From contig JBEKVD010000001.1 of NCBI GenBank assembly GCA_049514315.1, positions 4,380 to 68,379 of the forward strand: a DNA stretch of 64,000 nt. The letters are read 5' to 3'. This DNA comes from Candidatus Limnocylindrales bacterium. Its GTDB lineage: Bacteria > Chloroflexota > Limnocylindria > Limnocylindrales > CSP1-4. Shown here piece by piece: positions 3,916 through 48,235 of the stretch. Within the stretch, counting starts at the first letter, position 1; every line of letters begins with the position of its first letter. Position numbers and translations under genes: made by a program. The notes under the pieces were generated by a model. It ran no database searches and was not told the DNA's origin. It was given only the letters and a program-made list of their open reading frames with translations.

Positions 3916-5439
3916 CTATTCGAGAAGCCCAACCTCGGCCTCGACGGCGTCGAGAATCTCGCCCGACCGGACGAGCTCCTTCATCAGGTTGTGATCGGGG
4001 TACAGCGGCCGATCCTCGTCGAGGTGGGCGACGTGCCGCCGCACGACGTCGCGCGCAACCGACACCCCCCGGCCGAAGGCGAAGTCGCGGAAGTCGAGCG
4101 CCTGGGCCGCGGCCATGAACTCGATGCCCAGCACCCCGTACGCGTTGTCGAGGATCTGGCCGTTCTTGATGGCAGTGTTCATGCCCATCGAGACGAAGTC
4201 CTCCTGGTCGGCCGCGGCCGGGATGGACTGGATCGAGGCGGGGGCCGACAGGATTCGCTGCTCGACGATCAGGTGGTCGGCGGTGTACTGGCTCAGCATC
4301 ATGCCGGAGAACATGCCGGCGCCCTTCGTCAGGAAGTCCGGCAGGCCCACGCTGAGGGCCGGGTTCGTCAGCCGGTTCAAGCGCCGCTCGGAGAGGACGC
4401 ACACCATCGTCACGGCGACGCCCACCATGTCCATCGGCAGAGCCACGGGGCTCCCCTGGAAGTTGGCCCCGGTAAGGGTCAGCCGGGCCTCGGGCAGGAA
4501 GATCGGGTTGTCCCCGACCCCGTTCAGCTCGATCTCGACCTGCCGACGCGCCCACTCGACTGCGTCGATTGCCGCCCCGATGACCTGGGGCGAGGAGCGC
4601 ATCGAGTAGGCGTCCTGGACCTTTGTCTTCATCTTCCCGGTGGCGAGGTCGCTGCCCTCGATGCAGCGCATGATCGCCTGCGCCGACTTGACGGCTCCCG
4701 GGAATCCCCGCAGCTCGTGGAGGCGCGTGTCGTAGGGCTTGAGGTTCGCGACTAGCGCCTCGAGCGACATCGCGCAGGCAATCTCGGCCTGCTTGAGCCA
4801 GCGCGAAATGTCGTAGAGATGGATCGCGCTCATGGCCGTGAGGAGATTCGAGCCGTTGATCGTGGCCAGGCCGTCGCGAGCATGCAGCCCCGGCACGGGG
4901 ATCCCCGCGCGCTCCATCGCCTCCCGCCCAGGCAGCCGTTCGCCGCGATAGAACGCCTCGCCCTCGCCCATCAGCAGGAGCGCGGCCTGGGCCATCGGGG
5001 CGAGGTCGCCGCTGGCGCCCACCGAACCCTTCTGGCAGACGACCGGTGTGACTCCGCGGTTCAGCATCTCCACGAGCGTGAGCGTGATCTCCGGCCGGCA
5101 TGCCGAGTGCCCCCGGGCATGGACGTTGATCCGACCCGCCAGCGCGCCGCGCACCGCCTCGACCGGCGCCGGGTCCCCTATCCCCGCCGCGTGGTTGTAA
5201 ATGAGGTACCGCTGGAACTCGCGGACCTGCTCGTCGGACAGGACGATCTCGGAGAACTCGCCGATGCCGGTATTCGTCCCGTACATGATCTCGTGGGCCG
5301 CGAGCTTCTCCTCGAGCATGCTACGGCAGACGAGGATTCGCTCGAGCGCGGTCGGATCGAGCGCAGCCTCCTCGCCGTCCCTGGCGATTCGGACGAGGCG
5401 GTCGATGGTCAGCGACGATCCGTCGAGGACGATGGTCAT
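3916..5439 (-). CDS. MIO-dependent ammonia-lyase (histidine ammonia-lyase / aromatic amino-acid lyase family, PF00221), 507 aa
   Basis: Full-length match to the HAL architecture. The Ala-Ser-Gly triad that autocatalytically forms the MIO cofactor is present (GSVGASGDLAPM). The N-terminus is HAL-like (MTIVLDGSSLTIDRLVRIARDGEEAALDP). The gene is on the same strand as the BMC operon and 103 bp downstream of it. Confidence 0.85.
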   Translation of the reverse strand: MTIVLDGSSLTIDRLVRIARDGEEAALDPTALERILVCRSMLEEKLAAHEIMYGTNTGIGEFSEIVLSDEQVREFQRYLIYNHAAGIGDPAPVEAVRGALAGRINVHARGHSACRPEITLTLVEMLNRGVTPVVCQKGSVGASGDLAPMAQAALLLMGEGEAFYRGERLPGREAMERAGIPVPGLHARDGLATINGSNLLTAMSAIHLYDISRWLKQAEIACAMSLEALVANLKPYDTRLHELRGFPGAVKSAQAIMRCIEGSDLATGKMKTKVQDAYSMRSSPQVIGAAIDAVEWARRQVEIELNGVGDNPIFLPEARLTLTGANFQGSPVALPMDMVGVAVTMVCVLSERRLNRLTNPALSVGLPDFLTKGAGMFSGMMLSQYTADHLIVEQRILSAPASIQSIPAAADQEDFVSMGMNTAIKNGQILDNAYGVLGIEFMAAAQALDFRDFAFGRGVSVARDVVRRHVAHLDEDRPLYPDHNLMKELVRSGEILDAVEAEVGLLE

Positions 5440-5542
5440 GGCCGATCACTCCTGTCGGTTCGAACCGCCCTGAGAATCGTGGCGACCCCCGATCAGTCGT
5501 TTGGGCGGCATCGGTGTTGTCAGTTGACGATGGTAGGCCTCC

Positions 5543-5845
5543 TCAGGCCGGGCCGCCTGGCTGGGCCTGAGGCGCCGGCTCTTCCTCGACTGCGTCGACG
5601 ATCCCGACCACGAGCGTCCGGATCGGCGCTCCGGGAGCGCTCAGCACCTGGCGGGCGGAGTTGCCCTCGTCGAGGAGCAGGACGGTTTCCCCGGCACCGG
5701 CGCCTACCGTGTCGACCGCGATCGTGTAGCCCCCGGTGGGCCGGCCGTCCGGGTCGAGGAGGTCGCACAGGAGCAGCGTCCGCTCGTCGAAGGCGGGGGC
5801 GTTGATCGTTGAGACGACCGTGCCGACGACGCGGCCGAGCTTCAT
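5543..5845 (-). CDS. BMC vertex pentamer protein (BMC-P; EutN/PduN/CcmL family)
   Basis: 100 aa. MKLGRVVGTVVST...LLLCDLLD...GGYTIAVDTVGAGAGETVLLLDEG is the PF03319 hallmark. It overlaps the upstream BMC-P stop by 4 bp. Confidence 0.8.
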   Translation of the reverse strand: MKLGRVVGTVVSTINAPAFDERTLLLCDLLDPDGRPTGGYTIAVDTVGAGAGETVLLLDEGNSARQVLSAPGAPIRTLVVGIVDAVEEEPAPQAQPGGPA

Positions 5846-6126
5846 GGCTCGACCTCCGGCGCTACCGTCAACGCGTCCACGATCCCAACGATCGCGTGGT
5901 CCACCGGGACGAACGGATCGGGCATCGCCTGGGCGGCCTCGCGAGCGGCGACGAAGTAGACGAGCTCGCCCGGGCCTGCCATGTGGATCGCATCGGCCGC
6001 GACCAGCTGGCCGCCGGCCGGCTTCAACGACCGGTCGAGCGGCTGGATGACCAGGAGCTTCACGCCCTCGAGACCCGGCGCCTTGACGGTGGCGACCACG
6101 GTCCCGGTCACGCGCGCGAGTTGCAT
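5842..6126 (-). CDS. BMC vertex pentamer protein (BMC-P), second paralog
   Basis: 94 aa. [30 protein letters not shown]...GGQLVAADAIHMAGPGELVYFVAAREA matches the EutN/PduN fold pattern. Confidence 0.8.
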   Translation of the reverse strand: MQLARVTGTVVATVKAPGLEGVKLLVIQPLDRSLKPAGGQLVAADAIHMAGPGELVYFVAAREAAQAMPDPFVPVDHAIVGIVDALTVAPEVEP

Positions 6127-6129
6127 CGC

Positions 6130-6759
6130 CTACCCTCCCGCCCCGGGAGGTGCGAGGGTGGCTCGGATCCGCGCCGCGAAGCGCGGGTCCGCGGCCAGGT
6201 TGTCGGCCATCTCGGGGTGGAGCTGAGGTATGACCCGAGCCAGGACGCCCACGATCCCGGCCAGGCGCCCCGTCCCGATCTCGACAGCTGCCTCAACATC
6301 CGAGACCGAACCATCGAACAGGAGATAGCCCTTCCCCCCGAGGTCGTCGGCGAGGCGCAGCTCGATCAGGCGGACCCGGGCGCCCTTCAGCCCGGCATCG
6401 GCGGCCTCGATGATCGCAGCCACCGTGCGCGTCTCGATGATCCCGATGGCCTCGCCGGCCGGCTCTCCGCGCCGCCCACGGATAGCGGCAACCACGTCGG
6501 GATGAACGTTCGGGAGGAAGAGGTCGCCGATCACGCACGCCCCGCCTGCCTCGCGACCGGCGGCCAGCGCCTCCTCGACGTCGCCGACCGAGCCACCGAC
6601 CAGGACCAGGTACTTGCCGGGGTGGACGGTGCCGGCGCGCAGGACCTCGATCGGGGCGCGTTTGGCCATCGCGTCGCCGGCCTCGATACCCGCGGCAATG
6701 GACTCGAGCTCGAGCAGCGCGACGGCCGGTTCGAGGGCAGGGCCGGTGTCCATCGTCAC
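6130..6759 (-). CDS. BMC-T shell protein with tandem BMC (PF00936) domains, PduT-like
   Basis: 209 aa with two BMC-domain cores: ALLELESIAAGIEAGDAMAKRAPIEVL... and AIGIIETRTVAAIIEAADAGLKGARVRLIEL...GYLLFDGSVSDVEAAVEIG. Confidence 0.75.
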   Translation of the reverse strand: MTMDTGPALEPAVALLELESIAAGIEAGDAMAKRAPIEVLRAGTVHPGKYLVLVGGSVGDVEEALAAGREAGGACVIGDLFLPNVHPDVVAAIRGRRGEPAGEAIGIIETRTVAAIIEAADAGLKGARVRLIELRLADDLGGKGYLLFDGSVSDVEAAVEIGTGRLAGIVGVLARVIPQLHPEMADNLAADPRFAARIRATLAPPGAGG

Positions 6760-8219
6760 ACGATCCGCAACGCGCCGACGACGGTGATCCTCCGCTCGCG
6801 CGAGAAGGTCCGCGGCCGGGTCAGGCCATCACCCGAGGGGCTGGCGATAGAGAACGAGGTGAAGCCCTCGCCGCCCTCGCCGAGGCCGGCGAAGTTGGGC
6901 CCGTTCGTCACGAAGATGCTGCAGTTCATTGCTCGGGCCATCTTCGTGATCGTGTCGACGTTCGTGGAGTGGATGGAGGCAGTGTGGCGGAAACCGTGCT
7001 CGACGCGGACGGCCAGGTCGATGGCCGCCTCGACGGTGCCCACCCGCACGATCGGGAGCAGAGGCATCATCTGTTCGGTCCAGACCAGGCTGTGGTCGCG
7101 CGGCACGTCCGCGATGAGTAAGCGGGGCTCGGGATCGGCCTGGACGCCGATCTCGGCGAGCATCTTCGCCGCGTCCTGGCCGATCCAGGCCGGGTTCATG
7201 ACGCCGGGCTTCCCGGGCTGGCCGGGCTCCGCGAAGACCACTCGTTCGAGCCGGCGCAACTCGTGTTCCTTGAGCAGGTAGGCGCCGTTCCGGGTCATCG
7301 CCCGGATCAGCCGATCGGCGACGGTGTCGACGACGATGACGACCTTCTCGTCGATGCAGACGAGGTTGTTGTCGAACGAGGCGCCGCGGACGATATCGCG
7401 GCCCGCGCGCTCGAGATCTGCGGTCCCGTCCACGACGGCCGGCGGGTTGCCGGGACCCGCCGTTACCGCTCGTTTGTCGGTCTTGAGCGCCTCGCGGACG
7501 ACCGCGCCCCCGCCGGTGACCAGCAGGACGCGGACGCCCGGGTGCGACATAAGGGCGCGTGCGCTCTCGAGAGTCGGGTTGGCGGCGGCCGAGGCCAGAT
7601 TCGGAGGCCCGCCGGCACCGACGATCGCCCGATTGATGAGCCGCACGGTCTCCGCTGAGCAGCGCCTTGCGCTCGGGTGGGCGTTGAAGACGACGGCGTT
7701 GCCGGCCGAGACGATGCTGATCGTGTTGTTGATGATCGTGGAGGTCGGGTTCGTTACCGGCGTGAGCGCGGCGACGACGCCAAACGGGGCGAACTCGGTG
7801 ACCATCATGCCCGCGTCGCCGGTGACGGCCTGGACTTCCAGGTCCTCCGGGCCCGGTGCCTTTGAGGCGACCAGCCGGTTCTTCACGACCTTGTCCTCGA
7901 CCCGACCGAGGTGCGTTTCCTGGTGGGCCATCCGGGCCAGCTGTTCGGCGTGGTCCAGCATTGAACGGCGAACTGCCTCGATGATGACCTTGCGACCGGC
8001 CAGGCCCTGGACCTGGAACTCGTTGAAGGCACGTGTGGCCGCGGCCACGGCATCGTCGATCGTGGCGTGGATGCCGTCGCCCAGCTCGACGGCCGCGGCA
8101 GTCGCCAGCTCCGCCTCGGCCCGGAGGCCCTCACCCGGCCGCGCGTCCCCGGCCGCCGCCACTCGGCGGCGGACCCGCTCGATGATCTCGGAGATCTCGC
8201 GCTCGTCTAGCTCGCTCAT
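6756..8219 (-). CDS. CoA-acylating aldehyde dehydrogenase (PduP/EutE-like) with N-terminal encapsulation peptide
   Basis: 487 aa. The aldehyde-dehydrogenase core contains the catalytic Cys (FDNNLVCIDEK) and a Rossmann GxGxxG-like segment. The N-terminal amphipathic helix EREISEIIERVRRRV followed by an Ala/Gly linker is a classic BMC encapsulation peptide. Confidence 0.85.
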   Translation of the reverse strand: MSELDEREISEIIERVRRRVAAAGDARPGEGLRAEAELATAAAVELGDGIHATIDDAVAAATRAFNEFQVQGLAGRKVIIEAVRRSMLDHAEQLARMAHQETHLGRVEDKVVKNRLVASKAPGPEDLEVQAVTGDAGMMVTEFAPFGVVAALTPVTNPTSTIINNTISIVSAGNAVVFNAHPSARRCSAETVRLINRAIVGAGGPPNLASAAANPTLESARALMSHPGVRVLLVTGGGAVVREALKTDKRAVTAGPGNPPAVVDGTADLERAGRDIVRGASFDNNLVCIDEKVVIVVDTVADRLIRAMTRNGAYLLKEHELRRLERVVFAEPGQPGKPGVMNPAWIGQDAAKMLAEIGVQADPEPRLLIADVPRDHSLVWTEQMMPLLPIVRVGTVEAAIDLAVRVEHGFRHTASIHSTNVDTITKMARAMNCSIFVTNGPNFAGLGEGGEGFTSFSIASPSGDGLTRPRTFSRERRITVVGALRIV

Positions 8220-8231
8220 CGCCCTGGCCCG

Positions 8232-8519
8232 CTACTTGCGGTAAACCTCCGTCCCGCCGATCTCCCATGTGTCCACGATCGCCATGATCACGGCGTCGCA
8301 GGGCCGGTCGCGCGTCGTCTCCGTCTGGCGAGCGGAGCTGCCGGTGGCGTAGAGGACGACCTCGCCGACACCCGCACCGACCACGTCGGCGGCCACCACG
8401 TAACCTCCGGCCTCGCGGTTCTCTGCGTCGAGCTGGCGCACGACAAGGAGCTTCCAGCCTTCCATCAGCGGCTCTTTGCGGCTCGCGACCACGGTTCCGG
8501 TCACCCGTCCAAGGAGCAT
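8232..8519 (-). CDS. BMC vertex pentamer protein (BMC-P), third paralog
   Basis: The likely start is the internal ATG giving [31 protein letters not shown]...[23 protein letters not shown] (EutN/PduN). The longer 115-aa ORF has an Arg-rich leader that is unlikely to be translated. Confidence 0.75.
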
Positions 8520-8583
8520 CTCGTCACCGCCTGCTTCAGGGGAGCGCGCGCGCCGGCAATACGCCGGCGCGCGCCACAAGCTG

Positions 8584-8892
8584 CTAGTCCTGCTTGCTCT
8601 CGGCCTTGGCCTCCTTGAGTCGCCCGAGCGGCAGAACGAGGTCGACGTTGACGTGCGGCCGGGCGATCACGTGGCTGGCGACGACCTCGCCCACCTTCGC
8701 GGCGTTTCGGACGCCGGCATCGACCGCGGCCTTGACGGCGGCAACGTCGCCGCGAACCACGGCGGTCACGTACCCGCCGCCGGTCTTCTCGTAGCTGACC
8801 AGCTCCACCTTCGCCGCCTTGACCATCGCGTCGGCGGCCTCGACCACCGCCGCGAACCCGCGGGCTTCGATCATCCCAAGCGCTTCTGCCAT
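8584..8892 (-). CDS. BMC-H hexamer shell protein (PduA/EutM/CcmK-like)
   Basis: 102 aa. [60 protein letters not shown] is the canonical single BMC domain. Confidence 0.85.
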
Positions 8893-8962
8893 CGACCGTG
8901 TCTCCTTCTCGTGCGGCTACTCGACCCCGCGGTCGCCGCCGCCGCTGCACTGAGTCCTGCGC

Positions 8963-9578
8963 CTAAGCCTTCGCTTCGCGTCCTTCGAGTCCCTCGATCG
9001 CCGCCAGCGCAGCGCGCCAGCCGACGTCGATGTCACGCTCCTCGCCACCGAGGTAGATGCGGCCCATCGAGCCGAAGGCCCGCACTTCGAGGATGTTGAT
9101 GTGAGCTGCCTTCTCCGCCTCGTTGGCCGCGAGCGCGGCGTAGGCGGCGGGTTCGAGCTCCAGCACGTAGAGCGTCTGGCCGGGGATCAGCATCTGGCCG
9201 TGACGCGTCCGGTTGATGAGCTGGGCCTGGTGGTCGTCGATCCGGCGGATGATCTGCGAGGACAGGACGCGCGGCTTGATCCGGTCGGTTTCGGCCAGGC
9301 CAATCTCGGCGAGGATCGCGCCGCCGGCGGCGCGGACCTCGGCCTGCGACGGCGAGTGGATCTCGAGCATGCCGTAGTAACGCTCGATGATCTGCATGCC
9401 GGGCTTGACGGTCGTCGACTTGAGGGCGATATCGGTCAGCCGGTTGATCTCGATGCCGGGCGAGACCTCGACCGAGAGCGAGGCGTCGCCGGCGAGCGGC
9501 AGGAATCCCTGCGCGACCGTCCCCAGGAAGGCGGCGTACTGGGCCTGGAGGCTATCCAGGAAGACGTAGGCTCGAAGG

Positions 9579-9592
<14 letters not shown>
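8963..9592 (-). CDS. BMC-T shell protein, circularly permuted tandem BMC domains (EutL/PduB-like)
   Basis: 209 aa. The C-terminal segment [45 protein letters not shown] parallels the EutL permuted-domain stretch (AYLVAPPLEATYGIDAALK...). The length and position inside the shell-gene block support the call. Confidence 0.6.
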
Positions 9593-10462
<870 letters not shown>

Positions 10463-10466
<4 letters not shown>

Positions 10467-11095
10467 CCTCGAACCTCTCCGGCCGGAGCCATGTAACGGC
10501 GCTCGATCGCCGTGATCTTCTCGACCCGCGCGGCGTGGCGCCCCGGGGCCCAGTCCGTGCCGAGCCAGGCTCGCACGATCTCGATGGCCAGGCCCTCACC
10601 GACGAAGCGGGCGCCGAGGGTGAGGACGTTGGCGTGGTTGTGCTCGCGGCTGTTGCGGGCGCTCGAGAGGTCGTGGCAGAGGGCGGCCCGGACGCCCGGC
10701 ACCTTGTTGGCGACCATGCACGAACCGATACCGGCGCCGTCCAGGATGATTCCCCAGCGGCAGGTCCCGTCGGCCACGAGGCGGGCAACGGCGTGGGCGA
10801 TGTCGGGATAGTCCACGGGATCGCTGCCGTGCGTGCCGCAGTCGCGGACCTCGAAGCCGGTCTCGGTCAGCATCTGGCCGATCCGATCCTTGAGTGCGGA
10901 GCCGCCGTGGTCGGCGCCGATGGCAATGGCGACGCGTTCCGAACCGGCCGGGGCGACTCCAGCGGCCGCAACCGCCCCCGGCATGTTCGCCGGGGATGCA
11001 GTCGCGTCGGCGGCGAGCGTGGCGTCGACGATCCGGCGCACGATGTCGCGGACCTCGTTTTCGGACGGTGAAGCGGGACCGCGCATGTCACGCAT
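10463..11095 (-). CDS. rpiB: Ribose-5-phosphate isomerase B (RpiB/LacAB family) with ~60-aa N-terminal extension (encapsulation-peptide-like)
   Basis: Core [12 protein letters not shown]...[15 protein letters not shown]...[18 protein letters not shown] matches RpiB. The N-terminal helix [17 protein letters not shown] is followed by an Ala/Pro linker. The gene overlaps deoC by 4 bp. Confidence 0.85.
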
Positions 11096-12083
11096 GGTCG
11101 AGAACCCAGTCCGCGGTCGCCTCGTCGGTCACCATCACGTTGACGCAGCCCGACCGCAGGGCGGCAAGCGCAATCGGGCCCCTTCCCGGGCCGGCGGCGA
11201 CGCCCACCGCAAGAGCCTTCGCGCCGAGCTCCTCCAGCGGCAGGCCGATCGTCCGGCGGTCGAGCGACGGGAGGGCGATGCGACCGTCCAACGATAGGAA
11301 CCGCCCCAGGACGTCGCCCACCGCACCGGCCTCAGCGAGCGCGGCGAGCTCCGGGTCGCCGATGAAGCCGGACGCGACGTGGACGCTGTCCGGACCCATG
11401 ACGCCCATGCCGAAGACGGCGGTCTGGGCAGAGCGCGCGGCCGCGAGCGTCTGCCCGACGGACGGGTCTTTCTCGAGCGCCTCTCGAAGCTCGGGCGAGC
11501 CGACGATCGCGGGCGCCGCCATCATGCGGATCGCGGCTCCGGTCGTGAGCCCGAACTGCTCCACGACCTCCTGGGCCCGGGTCGGGCGGGCCGAGCGGGA
11601 CATCGCGCCGTTCAGCTGCACGATCTCGGACGCGGCCGTCCAGCCCGGGCGAAGATGTGCGGCGAGCTGGAGCATCGTGCGCCCCCACGAAACGCCTATC
11701 GCGCCCGCCGGCCGAAGCGAGGTCAGGTGGGCGGCGGCGGCACCGCCGACCCGCTCGCGGGCGAGGAGTTCCTGGTCGACGGCCGAAGCGGTCGGCGGCA
11801 CGTCGACGACGACCGCGCTCCGCAGGCCAAAGCGGCCGACCAGGCTGTCCTCGAGCTGTACCAGCCGGGCCGCGGGATGGACGATTTCGATGCGGACGGC
11901 CGACTCGCGCAGGGCGCGGTCCAGGAGGCGGCCGACCTTGAACCTGCTGACACCAAGGCGCTCGCCGACCTGATCCTGGGTCAGATTGAGCCGGTAATAG
12001 AGCTGGGCGGCGCGAAGCATCAGCCGGGTTTCCAGCCCGAGCTCGTCCTGGCGAAGGATAGCGGCGCCGGCGGGCATGCTCAA
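11088..12083 (-). CDS. SorC/DeoR-family sugar-phosphate-binding transcriptional regulator
   Basis: N-terminal HTH (LRAAQLYYRLNLTQDQVGERLGVSRFKVGRLLDRA), followed by a CggR/SorC-type sugar-binding domain. It is the first gene of the BMC operon and overlaps rpiB by 8 bp. Confidence 0.8.
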   Translation of the reverse strand: MSMPAGAAILRQDELGLETRLMLRAAQLYYRLNLTQDQVGERLGVSRFKVGRLLDRALRESAVRIEIVHPAARLVQLEDSLVGRFGLRSAVVVDVPPTASAVDQELLARERVGGAAAAHLTSLRPAGAIGVSWGRTMLQLAAHLRPGWTAASEIVQLNGAMSRSARPTRAQEVVEQFGLTTGAAIRMMAAPAIVGSPELREALEKDPSVGQTLAAARSAQTAVFGMGVMGPDSVHVASGFIGDPELAALAEAGAVGDVLGRFLSLDGRIALPSLDRRTIGLPLEELGAKALAVGVAAGPGRGPIALAALRSGCVNVMVTDEATADWVLDHA

Positions 12084-12243
12084 ATGTGCATATCTCTGCT
12101 CATATGTACAAGGCTACGCGCCCGACGACGGAGCTGTCAAGATACCTGGACTTGCCGTATTAACGGGCGTGCCGGTGCTCACGAGAGGGCCGGGCACGAG
12201 CGGTGCCGCTCCACCCGGCGACGCTTCCGGGCGGCGCCCGTTG

Positions 12244-15018: not shown

Positions 15019-15104
15019 CGCCGGGGTAGATCGGTGAAGGCTCGGCAGGCGGATGGCAGGTTGCATCAGAGGGCGTTCCTGCGCCGCAGCTAAGAGGATC
15101 AAGC

Positions 15105-17030
<1,926 letters not shown>

Positions 17031-33259: not shown

Positions 33260-34573
33260 TCAGTCGCGGTCGATCTCGAGCTTGAGGAAGTGCGTCGCGC
33301 AGCTGATGCAGGGATCGTAGGAGCGGATCAGCTGCTCGAGCCGGACGGTGGCCTTGGCATGCGGCAGAGACAGCACCCGCGGCGCGAACTCGGCCAGGTC
33401 CTGCTCGATCATGCCCTGGTTCTGGCCGGTGGGAGCGATGATCTGGGCGGCTGCGACCCGGCCGGCCTCATCGACGTCGTAGTGGTGCCAGCAGATGCCG
33501 CGCGGTGCCTCCGTGCCCCAACCTGTCTCGCCGGGGCGCGGGGTCCAGGGCGTGAACGCCCGAACCGGCTCTTCGTAGGTGTTGACGATATCCAGGGCGG
33601 AAGCCGACGCGTGGATCAACTCCACGGACCGGGCCGCGATAGCCCAGTACGGGTTGCTGGCGATCTGCCCGGCCAGTCCGCTGGTCTTGAGTGCCTCCCG
33701 CGCCAGCGGGTGGAGCTGGTCGGCGTTGAGGGTCACGCGCGCCGATGGGCCGAGCATGTAGGTGCGACCGTCGGTCGTTCGGGCGTGGAGCGCGTTCGTG
33801 CCCTCGTGCTGCTCCTCGTGGAACGCCTCGCGCCAGCCCCAGAGCGGCACGTCGATTCCATCGCTCGACACGATTCGGCCCTCGTTGAGGCCGTATTCGA
33901 CCGGGTGCTTGATCGCGACGTAGAGAGGATCGCGCTCGAACTTGGGGGCCTTGAAGGTGGCGACGAGCTTGAGGGTCGCCTGCGACAGGGCCAGGGCCTC
34001 CCCCAGCGGCTCCCGCATCGCCGCGATCTGCTCCCGTGTCGGCGTCCGCGAGAGCCCGCCCACCCGCATCGCCACGGGGTGGATGGCCCGGCCGCCGATC
34101 AGCTTCATGATCTCGTTGCCGGTCCGCTTCAGGCGCAACGCCTGCTCGACCACCGGCTTGTGGTCGCGGGCCATGGCTATGGCGCTCTCGTAGCCCAGGA
34201 AGTCCGGTGCGTGGAGCATGTAGACGTGGAGGGCATGGCTCTCGATCCACTCGCCCCAGTAGAGGAGCTTGCGAAGAGCTCGAACCTGGGGGTCGATCTC
34301 GACCTCGAACAGGTGCTCGAAAGCCATCGAAGCACCCATCTGGTAGGCGATGGGGCAGATGCCGCAGATGCGGGCGACGATGTCGACGACCTCGTTGGGC
34401 GTCCGACCCACGACCAGCTTCTCGAAGTAACGTGGCGCCTCGAAGATCGAAAGGCGCGCCTCGCGCACCTCACCATCGGTGATGCGGAGCCGAAGCGTGC
34501 CCTCGCCTTCAACTCGCGCGATCCCCACGACCTCGAAGTTGTGCTGGCCGGTCGCGACTTCTACCTTGGCCAT
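33260..34573 (-). CDS. [NiFe]-hydrogenase large subunit, group-3-like, 437 aa
   Basis: The N-terminal L1 motif is RICGICP, with an upstream RVEGEG in place of RIEGH[AG]. The C-terminal L2 motif is DPCISCATH followed by a 9-aa cleavable extension. A PCxSCxxH motif is typical of cytoplasmic group 3 enzymes. An AGGTGA RBS is present. Confidence 0.85.
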   Translation of the reverse strand: MAKVEVATGQHNFEVVGIARVEGEGTLRLRITDGEVREARLSIFEAPRYFEKLVVGRTPNEVVDIVARICGICPIAYQMGASMAFEHLFEVEIDPQVRALRKLLYWGEWIESHALHVYMLHAPDFLGYESAIAMARDHKPVVEQALRLKRTGNEIMKLIGGRAIHPVAMRVGGLSRTPTREQIAAMREPLGEALALSQATLKLVATFKAPKFERDPLYVAIKHPVEYGLNEGRIVSSDGIDVPLWGWREAFHEEQHEGTNALHARTTDGRTYMLGPSARVTLNADQLHPLAREALKTSGLAGQIASNPYWAIAARSVELIHASASALDIVNTYEEPVRAFTPWTPRPGETGWGTEAPRGICWHHYDVDEAGRVAAAQIIAPTGQNQGMIEQDLAEFAPRVLSLPHAKATVRLEQLIRSYDPCISCATHFLKLEIDRD

Positions 34574-36670: not shown

Positions 36671-37753
36671 ATGAATCTGCCGTTTCGGCCGCCGATCGAA
36701 CCCATGCTCGCCAGGCTCACCGACGCTATCCCGACCGGCGAGGGCTGGAGCTACGAGCCCAAGTGGGACGGGTTCCGGGCCCTGGTCTTCCGTGACGGCG
36801 ACGACACGTACCTCCAGAGCCGCGACCTCAGGCCGCTTGATCGCTACTTCCCGGAGTTGCCGCCGGCGCTCAGGTCCGCGCTGCCTGAACGGTGCGTCCT
36901 CGACGGTGAGGTGGTCATCGCCGGGCCGCACGGCCTGGACTTCGACTCGCTGCTGCTCCGCATCCACCCGGCCGAATCCCGGGTCAAGCTGCTGGCGGCC
37001 CGGACGCCCGCCAGTTACGTGGCCTGGGATCTCCTGGCCGTCGACGATCACGATCTCCGCGCCACTCCCCAGGGAGAGCGGCGCGCGCTGCTTGAGGCGG
37101 CGCTGGCGGGCGCGGCGGCACCGGTCCATCTGACGCCGGCGACCCGCGATCCATCGGTCGCGGCCGACTGGTTCGGGCGATTCGAGGGCGCCGGTCTCGA
37201 TGGTGTCGTCGCGAAGCGGCTGTCCGACCCGTACATGCCCGGCAAGCGGGGCTGGGCCAAGATCAAGCACTCTCGCACGGCAGATTGCCTCGTGGCCGGG
37301 TTCCGATGGCACAAGAACGGACCGGGAACGCTGGTCGGCTCCCTCCTTCTCGGGCTGTTCGATGAGACCGGCCGATTGAACCACGTCGGGATCACCGCCA
37401 GCTTCACCACCGATGAACGGCGCCGGCTTGTCGACGAGCTGGCCCCCCTCCGCGAGAACGCCCTGGTCCGTCATCCGTGGGCGGAGTGGGCCGAGTGGGA
37501 GGAGGCGGCGCGGGCCGGCGGCCAGCGGATGCCCGGGGCGACGAGCCGCTGGAACCGCGACCGCGATCTTTCCTGGGAGCCGCTGCGGGCCGAGCGGGTG
37601 TGCGAAGTTGGGTACGACCATCTCCAGGGCGACCGGTTCCGCCATGCCACGACCTTCCTGCGCTGGCGCCCGGACAAGCGCCCTTCCGACTGCCGCTACG
37701 ATCAGCTTGAGTCGACGACCCCGTTCGAACTCAAGGCAATCTTCGGCCGGTAG
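36671..37753 (+). CDS. ATP-dependent DNA ligase, LigC-type (adenylation + OB domains only)
   Basis: Motif I EPKWDGFRAL, motif III VLDGEVV, motif V DGVVAKRLSDPYMPGKR. 360 aa. Confidence 0.85.
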   Translation: MNLPFRPPIEPMLARLTDAIPTGEGWSYEPKWDGFRALVFRDGDDTYLQSRDLRPLDRYFPELPPALRSALPERCVLDGEVVIAGPHGLDFDSLLLRIHPAESRVKLLAARTPASYVAWDLLAVDDHDLRATPQGERRALLEAALAGAAAPVHLTPATRDPSVAADWFGRFEGAGLDGVVAKRLSDPYMPGKRGWAKIKHSRTADCLVAGFRWHKNGPGTLVGSLLLGLFDETGRLNHVGITASFTTDERRRLVDELAPLRENALVRHPWAEWAEWEEAARAGGQRMPGATSRWNRDRDLSWEPLRAERVCEVGYDHLQGDRFRHATTFLRWRPDKRPSDCRYDQLESTTPFELKAIFGR

Positions 37754-39101
37754 AGGTTGCCGGGCTGAGCCTCCGGTTGCTCGGCGATACGTCGCGCCAG
37801 GGGTCGTAGTCGACCTCGAGGGACTCCTGCGGCGGCCGCTCAGCCTCCGGCACGTGCTCGAGGTTGACTCGGATCCGGTACCACAGCGTGAAGCGGCCCC
37901 GCATGCCGTCGACCAGGATGTCGGCCGGCTCGAGGTGCGCCGCGACTTGCACGTGGCGAACCTTCCAGCGCTCGAAGCCGGCCAGGGCCTCTTCCTTCGT
38001 GGCGGCGCGGGCGATCTCCAGGAGCGGCTTGGCCGAGACGCGCCGGCCGGTCGGCAAGGCTGCAGCGCCGGCTGGGGCGCCTGCGCCTCCGTCGCCGGCC
38101 GCCTTTCGGGCCCGAGACGGCATGACTCGCGGGGGTTCTCCGGGCGCCTTGGCGTAGTGCGGCGGCCACGGCGCATCGCCCTGCCCGCCCCGCTCTTGAA
38201 GCGCCGAGAGTTCGAGCAGCCGCTCCAGCGACCCCACGGCCTCGTCTATGCCGGACCCCGGGTCGCCGCTCGTGCGGAATCGCCCCGGAACCGTTGCCAG
38301 CGTGAAGTCGCCGAGTTCGCAATCGGGCAGCTCGTCCCAGGTCACGGGCGCGGAGACTCGCGCGTCGGGCACGGGCCGAACCGAGTACGCCGACGCGACC
38401 GTTCGATCCTTGGCGTTCTGGTTGTAGTCGATGAAGACGCCGTGGCGCTCCTCCTTCCACCACTTGCTCGACGCGATCGAAGGCGCGCGCCTTTCCACCT
38501 CGCGAGCGAGCGCCAGCGCAGCGCCCCGGACTTCGTCAAACGACCAGCGCCGCTCGATCCGAACGTTGACGTGGATGCCGCGCGAGCCAGACGTCTTCGG
38601 CCATCCGACCAGCCCGTGATCCGTCAGCACCTCGCGGACCACCAGGGCCACGCGGCGGATGTCGTCCCAGGGCACCCCGGGCATCGGATCCAGGTCGACG
38701 CGCAGCTCGTCGGGGTGGTCGAGATCGTCGGCCCGGATCGCGTGCGGGTTGAGGTCGAGGCAGCCCAGGTTGGCCACCCACGCCAGGCCGGCGGTGTCGT
38801 CCAGGACGATCTCGTGTGCGGTCCGGCCGGATGGGAACGACAGCTCCACCGTGCGAAGCCACTCCGGCCGCGACTCGGGGGCTCGCTTCTGAAAGAAGTA
38901 CTCTCCCTCGGCGCCGTTGACGTACCGCTTCAGGGCCATCGGACGTCCGCCGGCGCCACGGAGCGCTCCATCGGCCACGGCCAGGTAGTAGCCGACCAGA
39001 TCGCGCTTGGTGTAGCCCGGCCCGGGGAAGTAGATCTTGTCGGGGTTGGTGATCGCGACGCGCCTGCCGGCGACATCGACGACCTCGCTTCGCGTTGGCA
39101 T
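37731..39101 (-). CDS. NHEJ primase-polymerase (LigD polymerase domain, PolDom) with ~120-aa C-terminal extension
   Basis: AEP-family motifs (KIYFPGPGYTKRDLVGYY; ...SGSRGIHVNVRI; FIDYNQN). The likely start is MPTRSEV at ~39101. Its 3' end overlaps the ligase 3' end convergently by ~22 bp. Confidence 0.8.
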   Translation of the reverse strand: MPTRSEVVDVAGRRVAITNPDKIYFPGPGYTKRDLVGYYLAVADGALRGAGGRPMALKRYVNGAEGEYFFQKRAPESRPEWLRTVELSFPSGRTAHEIVLDDTAGLAWVANLGCLDLNPHAIRADDLDHPDELRVDLDPMPGVPWDDIRRVALVVREVLTDHGLVGWPKTSGSRGIHVNVRIERRWSFDEVRGAALALAREVERRAPSIASSKWWKEERHGVFIDYNQNAKDRTVASAYSVRPVPDARVSAPVTWDELPDCELGDFTLATVPGRFRTSGDPGSGIDEAVGSLERLLELSALQERGGQGDAPWPPHYAKAPGEPPRVMPSRARKAAGDGGAGAPAGAAALPTGRRVSAKPLLEIARAATKEEALAGFERWKVRHVQVAAHLEPADILVDGMRGRFTLWYRIRVNLEHVPEAERPPQESLEVDYDPWRDVSPSNRRLSPATSTGRRLP

Positions 39102-39382
39102 GACCGAACGATAGCGCCCAGGCCGCCGGAGGCCCACCGACCGGCACGGCTCGATCGCACGCCGGGTCCACCCATCGTGGTCGGTCACCGACCGGGTCGG
39201 CGCCGGAACGAGCTCACTCCGCTGGGATGCTGCGGCCGATCGATCTCGACCTGTGCTGACCGGCGCCGTGCCGAGAGGTGCGCCATCGCCTGATCCGCGG
39301 CCGCCTCAAGAAACGGACATACGGAACGGCCGCCGGGGCTCCGACGGCCGTCCGAATCCGTTGAGCGTTGGTGTGGCTGCCG

Positions 39383-43886: not shown

Positions 43887-45931
43887 TCAGCCCGCGATTG
43901 GTAGCCGTCGGCCGTCGCGGATGAAGACCGTCGGCCGCCCCAGTGGGGCTTCGGCCGTCACCGCCCGGCCCCCGGGATGCCGCTCGCCGGTCCACGGGTC
44001 CGTCCACTCGGCGCCACGCGGCAGGTACACCTCCCGGGAGCGCAGACCGGGCTCCACTACCGGGGCGACGAGCAGGTCCGGTCCGAGCAGAAACTCGTCT
44101 TCGATCCCCCAGGCCTCGTCATCCGTTGGGAAGTCGACGAAGAGCGGCCGCATCGGTGGCAGCCCGGTTCGGGCCGCTACCGCGACCTGTTCGCGCACGT
44201 ACGGCAGCAGACGCTCGCGCAACCGAAGGATGGATGCCAGCATGCGGTAGACGGGCTCCCCGAACGACCACACCTCGTTCGGCGCGCCCGTGTCGTCGGC
44301 AAAGGGGGCGCGAACACCGTGGAGGCGAAAGATCGGGCAGAAGACGCCGAACTCGAACCAGCGGACAAGCAGCTCACGGAAGCCCTCGTCGGCCGCGAAG
44401 CCGCCGAAGAATCCGCCGACGTCCGTCGTCCACCACGGCATGCCGCTCAGTCCGACGTTCAGTCCGGCCCGAACCTGCCGTTTCAGCGAATCCCACGTCG
44501 AGTCGATGTCGCCGGACCACAGCGCTGCCCCGAGCCGTTGCGTCCCGGCCCAGGCCGATCTCGTGAGCAGGACGAACTCCTCGACGCCTGCCGCCCTGAA
44601 GCCGTGGAAGAAGGTCTGGGCGTGGTCGTGGGGGTATCGGCGCCGACCTCGAGGCCGGAGCCGGCAGCGAGGATGAGCGACTCGTGCGTCGGCGGGACGA
44701 GCTCGGGCTCCGCGGCATCGAGCCAGAACGCACGGATCCCGATGGAGGCGTAGCCGCGCTCGATCCGCGCCCAGACGTCCGCCCGCGCCGCAGAGTTGGT
44801 CGCGTCGTAGATTGCCAGCGGGCGGAACTGGGGCGAGTCGACGTCGCGGAACGTGGTGGTCGCGGGGCCGCCACTCTTCGCCATGACCAGCTCGCCTCGG
44901 TCGAGCAGCTCCGCGTGCGTGCCCGAGAGAGGGTTGACGGTCGGCCAGATGGACACGAGCGTCTCAACTCCCAGGCCGCGAAGCTCGGCGACCATGGTGG
45001 TCGGGTCGGGCCAGAAGCGCGGATCGAAGCGCCACTCGCCCATCAGCGGCCAGTGCCAGGCGTCGATGGCGATGACCGAGAGTGGAAGCCCGCGCTCGCG
45101 GTACTCGCGGGCCACTTCCGGTACCTCGGCCTGCGTGCGGTAGCGAAGCCGGCTCTGCCAGAACCCGAGTGCCCAGTCTGGCAGCGGCCGGGGATGGCCG
45201 GTGGCGTCGGCGTAGGCGGCGAGGATCTCGCGGGTGTCACCGGCGACCACCCAGTAGTCGCAGACGTCGGTGGCCTCGGCGGTCCAGCGGGTCTCGGCGG
45301 CCGCCAGGTGAACCTGTCCGATGGCAGGGTTGTTCCACAGAAAGCCATAGCCGCGTGAGGAGAGCGCGAACGGGATCGCCACCCAGGCGTCGCGCTGGAA
45401 GAGATCGAGGAGCTGGCCTTTCTGGTCGAGGCGGCCGTTGGGGTGCTGGCCAAGGCCGTAGATACGCTCGGCCAAATCAGACTCGAAGCTCACGGTCAAC
45501 CGGTGCAGGCCATCACCTCGGGCGGCGAAGTGGCGGGCGGGCCTGTCGACTGCTCGCCCGGGCGGCTCCGCGAGGAGGGGTGCTCGTGTCCCGGCGTCGA
45601 GGAACGTCAGGCGGCCATCGGTCGACAGCTGAACGCGAAGGCGGCCGTTGACGAGGACGCCTTGCCCGCGGGAAACCGATGCCACTGCTTCGGACGCGAC
45701 TTGAGGCCCCGGCCCGAGCGGCAGCAGGGCCCCCGGGCGGTCGGGGATGGGCCAGCCGCCCGTCGCTCGGACGCGGACAGCGTGAGGTCCCCAGACCTCC
45801 ACCCGAAGCCGGCTCGTGGGACCGCTCCAGGTCAACGACCTCTCGTCGGCCACGAGGCTCCCGCCGGCGGCGACCGCGCCGTCTGCGCCGCGGCGGGAAC
45901 TTCCGAAGGCTGCATGCGAGAACGCTAGCAT
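43887..45931 (-). pseudogene. GH31 alpha-glucosidase/alpha-xylosidase split by a frameshift
   Basis: The N-terminal ORF (45931..44483) carries the GH31 nucleophile region IRAFWLDAAEPE. The downstream part, in another frame, carries AALWSGDIDSTWDSLKRQVRAGLNVGLSGMPWWTTDVGGF, which holds the GH31 acid/base Asp. The frames switch somewhere between ~44630 and 44700. A G5 homopolymer at 44631-44635 is a candidate site. Confidence 0.6.
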
Positions 45932-46767: not shown

Positions 46768-47334
46768 CTAGAGGCCCAGGACTCCGCGGATCGTCTTGAG
46801 CCCTTCGATGACGTTCGCGACGTGCTCTTCGAACGGCACCCCCAGCTCGTCGGCGCCCCTGGTCAGCTGTTCGCGTGGCACCTGCCGAGCGAAGCCCCTG
46901 TCCTTCATCTTCTTGACGACGGCGTGCGGGTCCACCTCGTCCAGGCTCCGGTTAGGGCGAACGTACGCCACCGCGATGACGAAGCCGCTGAGCTCATCGC
47001 AGGCATAGACGGTCTTTGCGAGAAGGCCGACCCGTGGCACGCCGGTGTGGTCGCCGTGGCCGAGGACCGCTTCGACGACCTCCTCCGGGTAGCCGAGGCG
47101 CCGTAGCTCTTCAGCCCCTCGCATGGGATGGGTCTCCGGGTAGCGCTCGTAGTCGAAATCGTGCAGCAGGCCGGCCGCGCACCACGTCTCGAGATCCGGC
47201 TCGACGATCCCAAAGCGGTGCTCCGCGTACCAGCGGACGGTCGCCTCCACAGCCAGGCCGTGCTTGCGGAGCGCTTCGCTCGGCGTCCATTCGGTCAGGA
47301 GTTGCCAGGCGTCCTCACGGGTCGGTGTTTTCAT
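46768..47334 (-). CDS. HD-domain phosphohydrolase
   Basis: From the MKTPTREDAWQLL start, the HD motif is present (...AAGLLHDFDYERYPETH...). The 5' extension of the 314-aa ORF is non-coding-like. Confidence 0.65.
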   Translation of the reverse strand: MKTPTREDAWQLLTEWTPSEALRKHGLAVEATVRWYAEHRFGIVEPDLETWCAAGLLHDFDYERYPETHPMRGAEELRRLGYPEEVVEAVLGHGDHTGVPRVGLLAKTVYACDELSGFVIAVAYVRPNRSLDEVDPHAVVKKMKDRGFARQVPREQLTRGADELGVPFEEHVANVIEGLKTIRGVLGL

Positions 47335-47419
47335 GGAAGCCTCCTGCTCTGGAGCGTACCATCGACCGGGTATGGCAGGCGGCCGTCTTGCGCAAGCTTG
47401 TACTCGGAAGGGCACACAT

Positions 47420-48235
47420 ATGAGCAGACTCAAGGTAGCCCTCGTCCAGCTGGCCGCCGACGGGGACGCAGGCGCCAACGTGGACCGCGCCGCCGCGCTG
47501 ATCCGGAAAGCCGGCGCGAGCAAGCCCGGCCTGATCGCCCTGCCGGAGATGTTCCAGTACCGGGGCCCCGTTGCAGGGTTTCGGGAGTCGGCCACGACGC
47601 TGCCCGGCCCGCTGACGGAGGAGTTCTCCGAGCTGGCTCGCAATCTCGGCTCGTGGATCCTGTTGGGTAGTCTGGCCGAACTCTCGACCGACCCCATGAG
47701 ACCCTTCAACACCTCGGTCCTGCTCGATCCTGTCGGTCGAATTGCGGCGACCTACCGCAAGCGTCACCTCTTCGATGTGGTCATCGAGAACGGCCCGTCC
47801 GACCGCGAGTCGGCTCGGATCACGCCCGGCTACTCGAGTGTCGTCGCGGTCCTGGAAGGTGCGGCCGAAGGAGCCGACGTGTGCCTCGGCCTGAGCATCT
47901 GCTTCGACCTGCGGTTCCCGGAGTTGTACCGGGAGCTGACGGCCGCCGGAGCGGTAGTCATGGCCGTACCGGCCAATTTCACTGAGGCCACCGGCCGCGA
48001 CCACTGGGAGGTGCTGCTGCGTGCCCGGGCCATCGAGAATGGAGCCTTCGTCATCGCGCCGGCCCAGTGCGGCATCGGGGCGGGCGTGCCGGCGCATGGC
48101 CGCAGCATGGTGGTCGACCCATGGGGCATCGTCATCGCCCAGGCGCCGGACGGGCCTGGCGTCGTCGTCGCGGACCTCGACCTCGAGCGCGTCGTGGCGG
48201 TGCGCCGCGGGTTGCCGACGCGGCCGTCTCGCTGA
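47420..48235 (+). CDS. Carbon-nitrogen hydrolase (nitrilase superfamily)
   Basis: Glu-Lys-Cys triad contexts are LIALPEMF (E), YRKRHLFD (K) and LGLSICFDLRFPE (C). The start is MSRLKVALVQLA. Confidence 0.85.
   Translation: MSRLKVALVQLAADGDAGANVDRAAALIRKAGASKPGLIALPEMFQYRGPVAGFRESATTLPGPLTEEFSELARNLGSWILLGSLAELSTDPMRPFNTSVLLDPVGRIAATYRKRHLFDVVIENGPSDRESARITPGYSSVVAVLEGAAEGADVCLGLSICFDLRFPELYRELTAAGAVVMAVPANFTEATGRDHWEVLLRARAIENGAFVIAPAQCGIGAGVPAHGRSMVVDPWGIVIAQAPDGPGVVVADLDLERVVAVRRGLPTRPSR

Follow-up and report, generated by a model that had tools for sequence, protein, structure and literature searches.

Bacterial microcompartments (BMCs) of the sugar-phosphate-utilisation (SPU) type carry a DeoC-type aldolase (pfam01791), an enzyme unique to SPU loci, and have been divided into seven subtypes (Sutter et al. 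2021, Nat Commun, Supplementary Data 2), of which SPU3 was later curated again (Dwyer et al. 2024, PMC11585597). Here we describe a gene cluster of this type on the minus strand of a 64,000-nucleotide stretch of contig JBEKVD010000001.1, referred to throughout as the window. Judged from its genes, the locus at 5543-12140 very probably constitutes a self-contained operon for a BMC of the published SPU3 subtype, in an uncultured member of the Chloroflexota that probably belongs to the class Limnocylindria. The cluster is real and intact, and is predicted to break down deoxyribose-5-phosphate (dR5P) from DNA inside a protein shell.

A 2024 survey of these systems curated 206 SPU loci and described both the extensions of their deoxyribose-5-phosphate aldolase (DERA) and ribose-5-phosphate isomerase (RPI) proteins and the problem of start-site annotation (Dwyer, Sutter & Kerfeld 2024, PMC11585597). 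The DERA of subtype SPU6 has been purified and is active on dR5P in vitro, its RPI has little or no ribose-5-phosphate (R5P) isomerase activity, and the two proteins form a complex that leaves the kinetics of DERA unchanged (PMC11585597). In a 2025 preprint, SPU-type shells of Hodarchaeales were reconstituted, and green fluorescent protein cargo was recruited to them via an encapsulation peptide (PMC12747264). The remark in the first-pass annotation of the window, that no SPU compartment had been biochemically characterised, has been overtaken by this work. In the literature found, isolation of a native bacterial SPU compartment is not reported, nor is any study of an SPU3 protein. The system described here is already catalogued (SPU3, 2021), and the locus is an ordinary example of it, not a new kind of system; what novelty is left lies in the details, namely the operator, the RpiB site, a cysteine motif and the Limnocylindria host. 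A literature search returned no paper linking this lineage to microcompartments.

A ten-gene cassette

The cassette occupies 5543-12077 and comprises ten genes, in the order regulator, RpiB-like protein, DERA, BMC-Tdp, BMC-H, BMC-P, aldehyde dehydrogenase (AldDH), BMC-Ts, BMC-P and BMC-P:

11088-12077 from the ATG (329 aa), with the open reading frame (ORF) reaching to a TTG at 12083 (331 aa), minus strand: SorC/DeoR-family (Sugar-bind) regulator; PF04198, E 2.5e-50
10463-11095, minus strand: RpiB-like protein, 210 aa; PF02502, E 3.8e-52, domain at residues 57-194
9579-10466, minus strand: DERA (DeoC), the signature enzyme, 295 aa; TIGR00126, 277 bits against a cut-off of 117; PF01791, E 9e-21
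8963-9592, minus strand: BMC-Tdp, a permuted tandem protein of the double-stacking, CcmP-type trimer kind, 209 aa; CcmP structure 5lsr, E 9e-87, with Pfam BMC reaching only E 0.003
8584-8892, minus strand: BMC-H hexamer protein, 102 aa; PF00936, E 1.5e-29
8232-8519 (longer ORF 8232-8579), minus strand: BMC-P paralogue 1, 95 aa from MLLGR; PF03319, E 2e-29
6756-8219, minus strand: coenzyme A (CoA)-acylating AldDH, 487 aa; PRK15398, 614 bits against a cut-off of 403
6130-6759, minus strand: BMC-Ts, PduT-type tandem trimer protein, 207-209 aa; PduT structure 3vcd, E 4e-38
5842-6126, minus strand: BMC-P paralogue 2, 94 aa; PF03319, E 3e-25
5543-5845, minus strand: BMC-P paralogue 3, 100 aa, the last cassette gene; PF03319, E 7e-24

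All ten genes match their own families with very strong scores in Pfam, PDB and NCBIfam, far beyond chance, and the observation is therefore real. All cassette ORFs are intact, with a coding-type GC content at third codon positions (GC3) of 0.83-0.92. The first-pass annotation had named a SorC/DeoR regulator, RpiB, DeoC, a permuted BMC-T, a BMC-H, a BMC-P, an aldehyde dehydrogenase, a tandem BMC-T and two further BMC-P, and each of these identities was matched in the same three resources; every shell ORF hits BMC or EutN profiles or solved shell structures. Its reading of the architecture as SPU-type was likewise correct at the core, a DeoC-type aldolase and a BMC-type AldDH standing together with shell genes.

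Its counts required revision. In place of seven shell genes there are six (one BMC-H, three BMC-P, one BMC-Tdp and one BMC-Ts), a tblastn search of the entire window with each of the six returning only these known genes; the three cargo proteins all have extensions. The eleven genes reported are indeed co-oriented, but the eleventh, an unnamed lyase gene at 3916-5439 whose silent inclusion placed the start of the earlier span at 3916, follows a 103-bp gap and falls outside the cassette. Stops and starts, said to overlap, do so at five of the nine cassette junctions, the other four being gapped: in order, the spacings are -8, -4, -14, +70, +64, +12, -4, +3 and -4 bp, so that the regulator stop overlaps the RpiB start by 8 bp, the DERA gene overlaps the BMC-Tdp gene by 14 bp, and the adjacent BMC-P paralogues 2 and 3 overlap by 4 bp. 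To call the operon complete was generous, in that the shell and core enzymes are present but a Pfam scan of the locus and of the window's larger predicted ORFs found no phosphotransacylase (PTAC), alcohol dehydrogenase or PduS. The same holds for PF06130, PF00121 and PF00596 (PTAC, triose-phosphate isomerase and class II aldolase), and a PduS/RnfC-type gene was found neither within ±10 kb in the JGI Pfam annotation nor among the window's larger ORFs.

The comparisons below draw on 81 related loci from other genomes (L005-L085). In the scan of GTDB species representatives the best 80 of 596 relatives were inspected, 596 being no count of SPU loci, since the search peptides also occur in ordinary DERAs. 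Shell genes directly follow DERA, in the order RpiB-DERA-Tdp-H-P-AldDH-Ts-P-P, in 63 of the 81, and these syntenic loci come from Chloroflexota, Acidimicrobiia, Gaiellales, Thermoanaerobaculia, Myxococcota and Ca. Multivoradales. Wherever a related locus reaches that far, the cassette ends with BMC-P paralogue 3. An identical DERA with the same neighbourhood occurs on JGI metagenome contigs (3300043294 and others), and the nearest named relatives are metagenome-assembled genomes of Ca. Limnocylindrales and Limnocylindria.

Assignment to subtype SPU3

The locus was assigned to SPU3 by comparing its composition with the written definition of that subtype. As in the definition, its only enzymes are AldDH, pfam02502 and pfam01791, with RpiB before DERA, and AldDH and DERA carry N-terminal encapsulation peptides, although the amphipathic moment is significant for AldDH only. 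The locus also shares the single BMC-H, the BMC-P triplet with two adjacent members, the CcmP-like BMC-Tdp, and a BMC-Ts with neither a PduS partner nor a pore cysteine. Hosts of SPU3 include Chloroflexi, Actinobacteria and Acidobacteria, as do those of the related loci. Three differences were noted: RpiB and DERA are separate here and fused in a subset of SPU3 loci; the Chloroflexota versions have a SorC/DeoR-like regulator and a conserved operator, which go unmentioned in the SPU3 texts found; and the RpiB extension clearly resembles an encapsulation peptide, a kind of element that the 2021 text gives for AldDH and DERA alone.

The other subtypes fit less well. SPU6, a first guess suggested by the Chloroflexota host and the lack of PduS, was ruled out by the N-terminal position of the AldDH peptide, the CcmP-like Tdp and the absence of a EutQ-like gene, the cassette containing no extra ORF of ~130 aa. 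SPU2 needs a fourth, green-clade BMC-P, usually has a pore Cys in its BMC-Ts and occurs in Bacteroidetes, Spirochaetes and candidate phyla, whereas there are three BMC-P here, the pore position is His or Gln and the hosts are Chloroflexota, Actinomycetota and Acidobacteriota. In SPU1, SPU4 and SPU7 a PTAC (pfam06130) is present and a Tdp absent, the reverse of the situation here. SPU5, lastly, lacks pfam02502 and has a CsoS1D-like Tdp and a PduS-associated BMC-Ts with a pore Cys; the present locus has RpiB, a CcmP-like Tdp, and neither PduS nor the pore Cys.

Cargo proteins and their N-terminal extensions

The active sites of the two core enzymes are preserved. DERA residues D161, K196 and K225, matched by motif to E. 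coli D102, K167 and K201, are invariant in 81 of 81 loci, and Cys288 of AldDH, in an FDNNLVC motif, is present in 57 of 57. Among BMC aldehyde dehydrogenases, AldDH is closest to PduP (5jfl, E 1e-126, 427 bits), followed by 4c3s (E 1e-111), with the Listeria EUT2-type enzyme 3k9d scoring far lower (184 bits); together with the PRK15398 score and the conserved Cys288, this bears out its earlier description as CoA-acylating. The following elements lie within the N-terminal regions of the three cargo proteins:

11012-11062, minus strand: candidate encapsulation-peptide helix of the RpiB-like protein, residues 12-28; conserved motif and hydrophobic moment
10395-10445, minus strand: predicted N-terminal targeting helix of DERA, residues 8-24; conservation and AlphaFold2 (AF2)
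10326-10361, minus strand: four-cysteine motif in the DERA extension, residues 36-47; orthologue alignment
8160-8204, minus strand: candidate encapsulation-peptide helix of AldDH, residues 6-20, EREISEIIERVRRRV; conservation and hydrophobic moment

The three peptides originally quoted are present exactly as written. The extensions of DERA and RpiB had been put at 60-70 residues; the lengths found here are ~73 in DERA, ~56 in RpiB and ~35-48 in AldDH. The DERA extension has 73 residues, solved DERA structures in the PDB aligning from residue 74, and among 22 orthologues (77-91% identity) Met1-Thr2 and the helix residues R8, L11, I15, T16 and V19 are invariant; the helix and a following VRxVVxxGAxR(V/I) segment are kept in 81 loci from several phyla. 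In the RpiB extension the motif xxE(V/I)RxxVxR(I/V)(V/L)D, conserved in orthologues from Chloroflexota, Acidimicrobiia, Gaiellales, Thermoanaerobaculia and Myxococcota, precedes a variable Pro/Ala linker. At its extreme N-terminus AldDH has (D/E)xEIxxIIxRVRxR(V/L) in all 23 orthologues, from several phyla, and its C-terminus belongs to the family core, residues up to 486-487 aligning to the end of 5jfl and PRK15398. Because the extensions are conserved in orthologues of several phyla, they are not start-site artefacts. With the profile and structure matches of the shell ORFs, this leaves neither of the two refuting conditions named in the first-pass annotation borne out.

The three helices, of which those of DERA and RpiB were originally called amphipathic, differ in how far the Eisenberg hydrophobic moment supports that description: the AldDH peptide lies clearly above shuffled sequences (0.77 against a shuffle mean of 0.37), the RpiB peptide is borderline (0.54 against 0.30), and the DERA 16-mer does not exceed its shuffles (0.26 against 0.28), its sequence being strongly conserved nonetheless. 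AF2 gave a confident DERA core and a helix at residues 8-24, within an extension whose predicted local distance difference test (pLDDT) values are 32-56.

The DERA extension also carries four cysteines, spaced C36-x2-C39-x3-C43-x3-C47, which would set all four on one helix face. They are invariant in 22 close Limnocylindria-type orthologues, and over several phyla Cys is kept at the four positions by 46 to 68 of 82 aligned sequences (the window's own included); the segment is deleted in most Acidimicrobiia, and pLDDT over the motif is 32-41. The motif is not discussed in the SPU paper of Dwyer, Sutter & Kerfeld (2024, PMC11585597). For MIC3 and MIC6 loci, Sutter et al. (2021, Supplementary Data 2) mention extensions with 4×Cys, likewise unexplained.

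Shell proteins

The BMC-Tdp is CcmP-like by similarity ranking, as distinct from phylogeny: in the PDB it matches CcmP best (5lsr and 4ht5, E 9e-87, 293 bits), ahead of the BMC-T of the Haliangium ochraceum (HO) compartment (5v76, 2e-72, 247 bits), CsoS1D (3f56, 3e-51, 178 bits) and RMM (169 bits). Its Glu70-Arg71 aligns with E69-R70 of CcmP, a Glu-Arg pair that we take to gate the pore in Tdp proteins of the CcmP type, and its JGI record carries PF27545 CsoS1D_N.

The BMC-H, the sole single-domain PF00936 gene in the locus, has the pore motif K-T-G-G-G-Y, with GGG in 62 of 62 loci and K36 in 51 of 62. Its sequence also contains K25 (in KAAK) and ARPH, presumably the 'standard' BMC-H motifs. 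The three BMC-P are 39-45% identical to one another, paralogue 1 sharing 41-45% with the other two. In the longer ORF of paralogue 1, PF03319 aligns from residue 21, and public gene calls give 95 aa; its true start is probably at 8519.

The BMC-Ts matches PduT (3vcd, 3n79 and 3pac) at E ~1e-38. Its His46 falls at the position of PduT Cys38, as set by motif (ICPGKF in PduT, VHPGKY here), Cys38 being presumably the cysteine that binds the [4Fe-4S] cluster. This position is His in 46 of 53 loci, Gln in seven and Cys in none, in agreement with the SPU3 rule of no pore cysteine, and His46 would place three histidines at the trimer axis, giving a His-lined pore.

Regulator, predicted promoter and candidate operators

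Only the Chloroflexota cassettes include the regulator. Its nearest characterised homologue is the dR5P-responsive DeoR of Bacillus subtilis (NF053881, 210 bits against a cut-off of 420; PDB 8r7y, E 8e-38). At the position aligned with the effector-binding lysine of that protein, which we take to be Lys141, the Schiff-base residue with dR5P, Asn stands in 22 of 22 loci. Effector binding by DeoR is covalent (PMC11229326). Support for dR5P as effector by way of the DeoR Schiff-base lysine thus failed, the aligned residue being Asn, and the effector of this regulator may differ from dR5P.

The upstream regions of 23 Chloroflexota loci are nearly unalignable apart from a -35 element, a -10 element and two palindromes, which alone stand out:

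12135-12140, minus strand: predicted -35 element TTGACA, within a CTTGACA block kept in 22 of the 23 Chloroflexota loci; putative function
12111-12116, minus strand: predicted -10-like element TAGCCT, 18 nt after the -35, with TAG or TAC at the same distance in related loci and a weak match to the consensus; putative function
12097-12109, minus strand: operator-like imperfect palindrome 1, GTACATATGAGCA, kept in 22 of the 23 Chloroflexota loci
12077-12089, minus strand: operator-like imperfect palindrome 2, GCACATTTGAGCA, adjoining the probable ATG (12075-12077) and sharing its first base

The two 13-bp imperfect palindromes (GYACAWWTGAGCA) are exact copies of the pattern, 20 bp apart, and at one related locus (L019) the palindrome is perfect, GCACATATGTGC. 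Against an expectation of 0.06 occurrences per window, the pattern turned up three times. The third copy, with one mismatch (ACACATATGAGCA, 47414-47426, plus strand), lies in or beside an HD-domain gene (46768-47712, minus strand) and may be either a chance occurrence or a second target of the regulator. Generic promoter and terminator scans returned no promoters and nothing relevant on the minus strand; the -35 was missed because the -10 is weak, and the silence of the promoter scan is uninformative because the genome is 69% GC.

We infer that the SorC-family regulator binds at the two palindromes. An operator so placed, downstream of the -10, would be suited to roadblock repression, and two half-operators would fit the model, shown for B. 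subtilis DeoR and CggR, of a tetramer on two half-sites (PMC11229326).

Predicted pathway and the role of the RpiB-like protein

Taken together, the genes suggest the following scheme. The SorC/DeoR repressor, encoded by the first gene, would sit on the two palindromes just downstream of its own promoter and be released by a sugar phosphate, possibly dR5P. The shell would be built, by homology to solved shells, from one BMC-H, one PduT-like BMC-Ts, one gated BMC-Tdp of the CcmP kind and three BMC-P. The three cargo proteins (DERA, RpiB-like protein and AldDH) would be drawn inside by their N-terminal helices, which are conserved; for this, SPU6 and the archaeal SPU-type shells offer precedent. 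Entering dR5P from deoxynucleoside breakdown would be cleaved by DERA, whose catalytic residues are intact, into glyceraldehyde-3-phosphate plus acetaldehyde, and AldDH would turn the trapped acetaldehyde into acetyl-CoA and NADH, the reduced form of nicotinamide adenine dinucleotide (NAD+). With PTAC, alcohol dehydrogenase and PduS all missing, NAD+/NADH and CoA/acetyl-CoA would have to pass the shell, plausibly by way of the BMC-Tdp pore, a passage suggested by Dwyer et al. (PMC11585597).

In favour of dR5P as substrate, nucleoside-catabolism genes adjoin the cassette in seven related Chloroflexota loci, and the closest characterised relative of the regulator is a dR5P-responsive DeoR. In three of these, a Bmp/ABC nucleoside transporter, two PNP/UDP-family phosphorylases and a cytidine deaminase lie upstream; in the other four only a phosphorylase lies downstream, accompanied in three by a cytidine deaminase.

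Several points weigh against the dR5P-degrading compartment as proposed. The case for this locus, as for every SPU3 locus, is a prediction from sequence. The larger predicted ORFs of the 64-kb window include no nucleoside transporter, phosphorylase or phosphopentomutase, and the route of substrate supply is therefore unseen in this organism; cofactor recycling is unexplained; and the regulator, which appears to lack the DeoR Schiff-base lysine, may respond to another effector. As regards cargo, the hydrophobic moment of the DERA helix does not mark it as significantly amphipathic, and AF2 models the whole DERA extension with low confidence. The ligand site of the RpiB-like protein, finally, appears to be under strong purifying selection and is, on the alignment, conserved too well for a pure scaffold, a role that would not predict this.

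In the scheme above the RpiB-like protein would most likely serve as a DERA-binding organiser of the core, not as an R5P isomerase, though its ligand site is conserved, and it is probably cargo or a scaffold partner of DERA. Its conserved extension upholds its placement among the cargo in the first-pass annotation, but its standing as a third cargo enzyme is doubtful, given that the E. coli Cys66 position is Asp and the SPU6 protein has little or no R5P isomerase activity. Specifically, that position is Asp119 in 76 of 76 loci and Thr68 is Ala in 76 of 76, while D9, H10, H99, N100, R133 and R137 do not vary; at H134, 72 of 75 loci have His and three have Tyr. The numbering of the E. coli RpiB sequence behind this alignment agrees with the Cys66, His99 and SPU His152 of Dwyer et al. 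The change of Cys66 to Asp has been reported for all SPU RPIs (PMC11585597).

An alternative that we consider unlikely accepts the same BMC but gives it a physiological substrate other than, or additional to, dR5P. The RpiB-like protein, with Asp119 as catalytic base, would in that case be an active isomerase that either turns another (deoxy)pentose or tetrose phosphate into the substrate of the aldolase or processes one of its products, and the organelle would run a two-enzyme sugar-phosphate pathway. The E. coli RpiB-site residues are invariant or nearly so across ~76 loci, with Tyr for H134 in three, and the two substitutions, Cys66 to Asp and Thr68 to Ala, being fixed in all, look like selection for a modified active site, not decay. 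The M. tuberculosis RpiB works with Glu as its base (cited in PMC11585597), and in NCBIfam the substrates of RpiB-related members include erythrulose-4-P and galactose-6-P. RpiB always neighbours DERA and is sometimes fused to it, and the regulator without the DeoR Schiff-base lysine would also agree with another substrate. Set against this are the little or no R5P isomerase activity of SPU6 RPI, the unchanged kinetics of DERA in its complex, and the fact that no known pathway joins the RpiB reaction directly to DERA (PMC11585597). The DERA, moreover, reaches equivalog level for deoC and has its active site intact, and nucleoside-catabolism genes flank several related loci.

A joint proposal, which we rate as doubtful, goes further: a re-tooled active site would make the RpiB-like protein a genuine enzyme for a sugar phosphate other than R5P, and the DERA cysteine motif would be a metal, Fe-S or disulfide element coupling cargo aggregation to redox state. 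If this were true, the re-tooled RpiB would make the organelle a two-step pathway, and either half would give a first functional role to parts that current papers treat as inert packaging.

Related loci and genomic neighbourhood

In four close relatives, which are among the seven with neighbouring nucleoside-catabolism genes (L005, at 15073-16927, and L006, L007 and L009), the cassette is followed by an unannotated 354-aa protein and an extension-less 260-aa DeoC, 46% identical to the BMC DERA; the extended DERA is therefore a distinct form. Neither the 354-aa protein nor a second DeoC was found in the window. A further set of loci from Acidobacteriota (Blastocatellia, Pyrinomonadaceae and Vicinamibacterales; L068-L081 and L083-L085) mostly has an RpiB-like protein and a DERA with a related extension, four having DERA alone. 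No shell genes were found within ±10 kb of these at E<1e-8, and any compartment of theirs must have its genes elsewhere or be very divergent.

Downstream of the cassette, the gene at 3916-5439 (minus strand) encodes an aromatic-amino-acid/histidine ammonia-lyase (PF00221, E 1.5e-156) with the 4-methylideneimidazole-5-one (MIO) motif GASGD. It scores 522 bits against a HutH cut-off of 524, residues 2-501 aligning to positions 3-503 of 505. It has 'NH' where HutH presumably has 'SH' before AAG, which makes its substrate uncertain, and neither hutU nor hutI lies nearby. That this lyase is co-transcribed as the eleventh gene of the operon and functionally tied to the BMC seems very unlikely. It is co-oriented, only 103 bp downstream of the last BMC-P, and no terminator-like hairpin is predicted in the gap; yet the lyase is absent from all 81 related loci, its occurrence being confined to same-organism contigs, it is served by a GGAG ribosome-binding site of its own, its end-to-end alignment with HutH models leaves no encapsulation extension, and ammonia-lyase chemistry yields no aldehyde. 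We treat it as a neighbour of the cassette, not a part.

The notion that the extensions are start-site artefacts or the cluster a decaying relic, with housekeeping DeoC, RpiB and AldDH beside shell genes by chance, found no support (the generic promoter scan being silent but uninformative at 69% GC) and is effectively refuted by extensions conserved from Met1 across phyla, intact ORFs with GC3 of 0.83-0.92, invariant catalytic residues and the separate extension-less DeoC paralogue of relatives.

The remaining large ORFs of the window are unrelated housekeeping genes, a few of which have features of their own. A GH31 gene is split into two ORFs (43887-44441 and 44483-45931, minus strand), one with the N-terminal domain and TIM-barrel positions 4-162, the other with TIM positions 255-325 and the C-terminal domain, which suggests a frameshift, a pseudogene or an assembly error. 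By its translation, a 641-aa ORF at 15105-17030 (plus strand) has Ser/Thr-kinase motifs, PASTA-like repeats and a long C-terminal (PT)n; its public record carries no Pfam match. Genes of the non-homologous end-joining type include a convergent pair, one for an ATP-dependent DNA ligase (36671-37753, plus strand) and one for a LigD primase-polymerase (37731-39188, minus strand), as well as another ligase-like ORF, of 228 aa, at 56424-57110. A 437-aa protein (33260-34573, minus strand) has partial matches, in two stretches, to the NiFe-hydrogenase large subunit PF00374.

Significance and comparison with known systems

The locus is a clean, compact, ten-gene example of SPU3 from a lineage of uncultured soil or freshwater Chloroflexota (Limnocylindria), and a well-delimited candidate for heterologous reconstitution, with six shell genes, three tagged cargo proteins and one regulator with a predicted operator. 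It also provides a data point for several questions in the field, among them the way in which a metabolosome without PTAC, alcohol dehydrogenase or PduS recycles its NAD+ and CoA, what role a catalytically altered RpiB plays, and why three pentamer paralogues are kept.

At the level of regulation, the best characterised homologue is B. subtilis DeoR, which controls a DERA gene and acts as a tetramer on two half-operators; it differs in its ~30% identity, in the score of 210 against the 420 cut-off and in its operator, which is TTCAA-based in Bacillus and GCACAnnTGAGC here. The HO BMC shares the BMC-P triplet, the BMC-Ts and a Tdp of the CcmP/CsoS1D type, the window's Tdp matching 5v76 and 5v74 at E 1e-72 to 1e-67 and its Ts matching 5dih at E 4e-25, but the main HO locus has neither DERA nor RpiB, and no substrate is known for it. 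The Hodarchaeales SPU-type BMCs have in common with this locus the core of DERA and AldDH, the predicted dR5P substrate and the encapsulation peptides, and are set apart by the fusion of their DERA to a flavoprotein domain, by their PTAC and by one BMC-P with a disordered tail that binds DNA (PMC12747264).

The only SPU subtype with purified enzymes is SPU6, of Chloroflexi bacterium GWB2_54_36 (PMC11585597). Its own features, unlike those here, are a C-terminal AldDH peptide, an AldDH on the EUT2/GRM1 branch, a 'blue'-clade Tdp near EUT3 and a EutQ-like protein of ~130 aa. The likenesses extend from the DERA, with an extension of ~70 aa and an intact D/K/K site, and the RPI, with its N-terminal peptide, the change of Cys66 to Asp and a His numbered 152 in both, to the absence of PduS, the BMC-P triplet and the Chloroflexi host.

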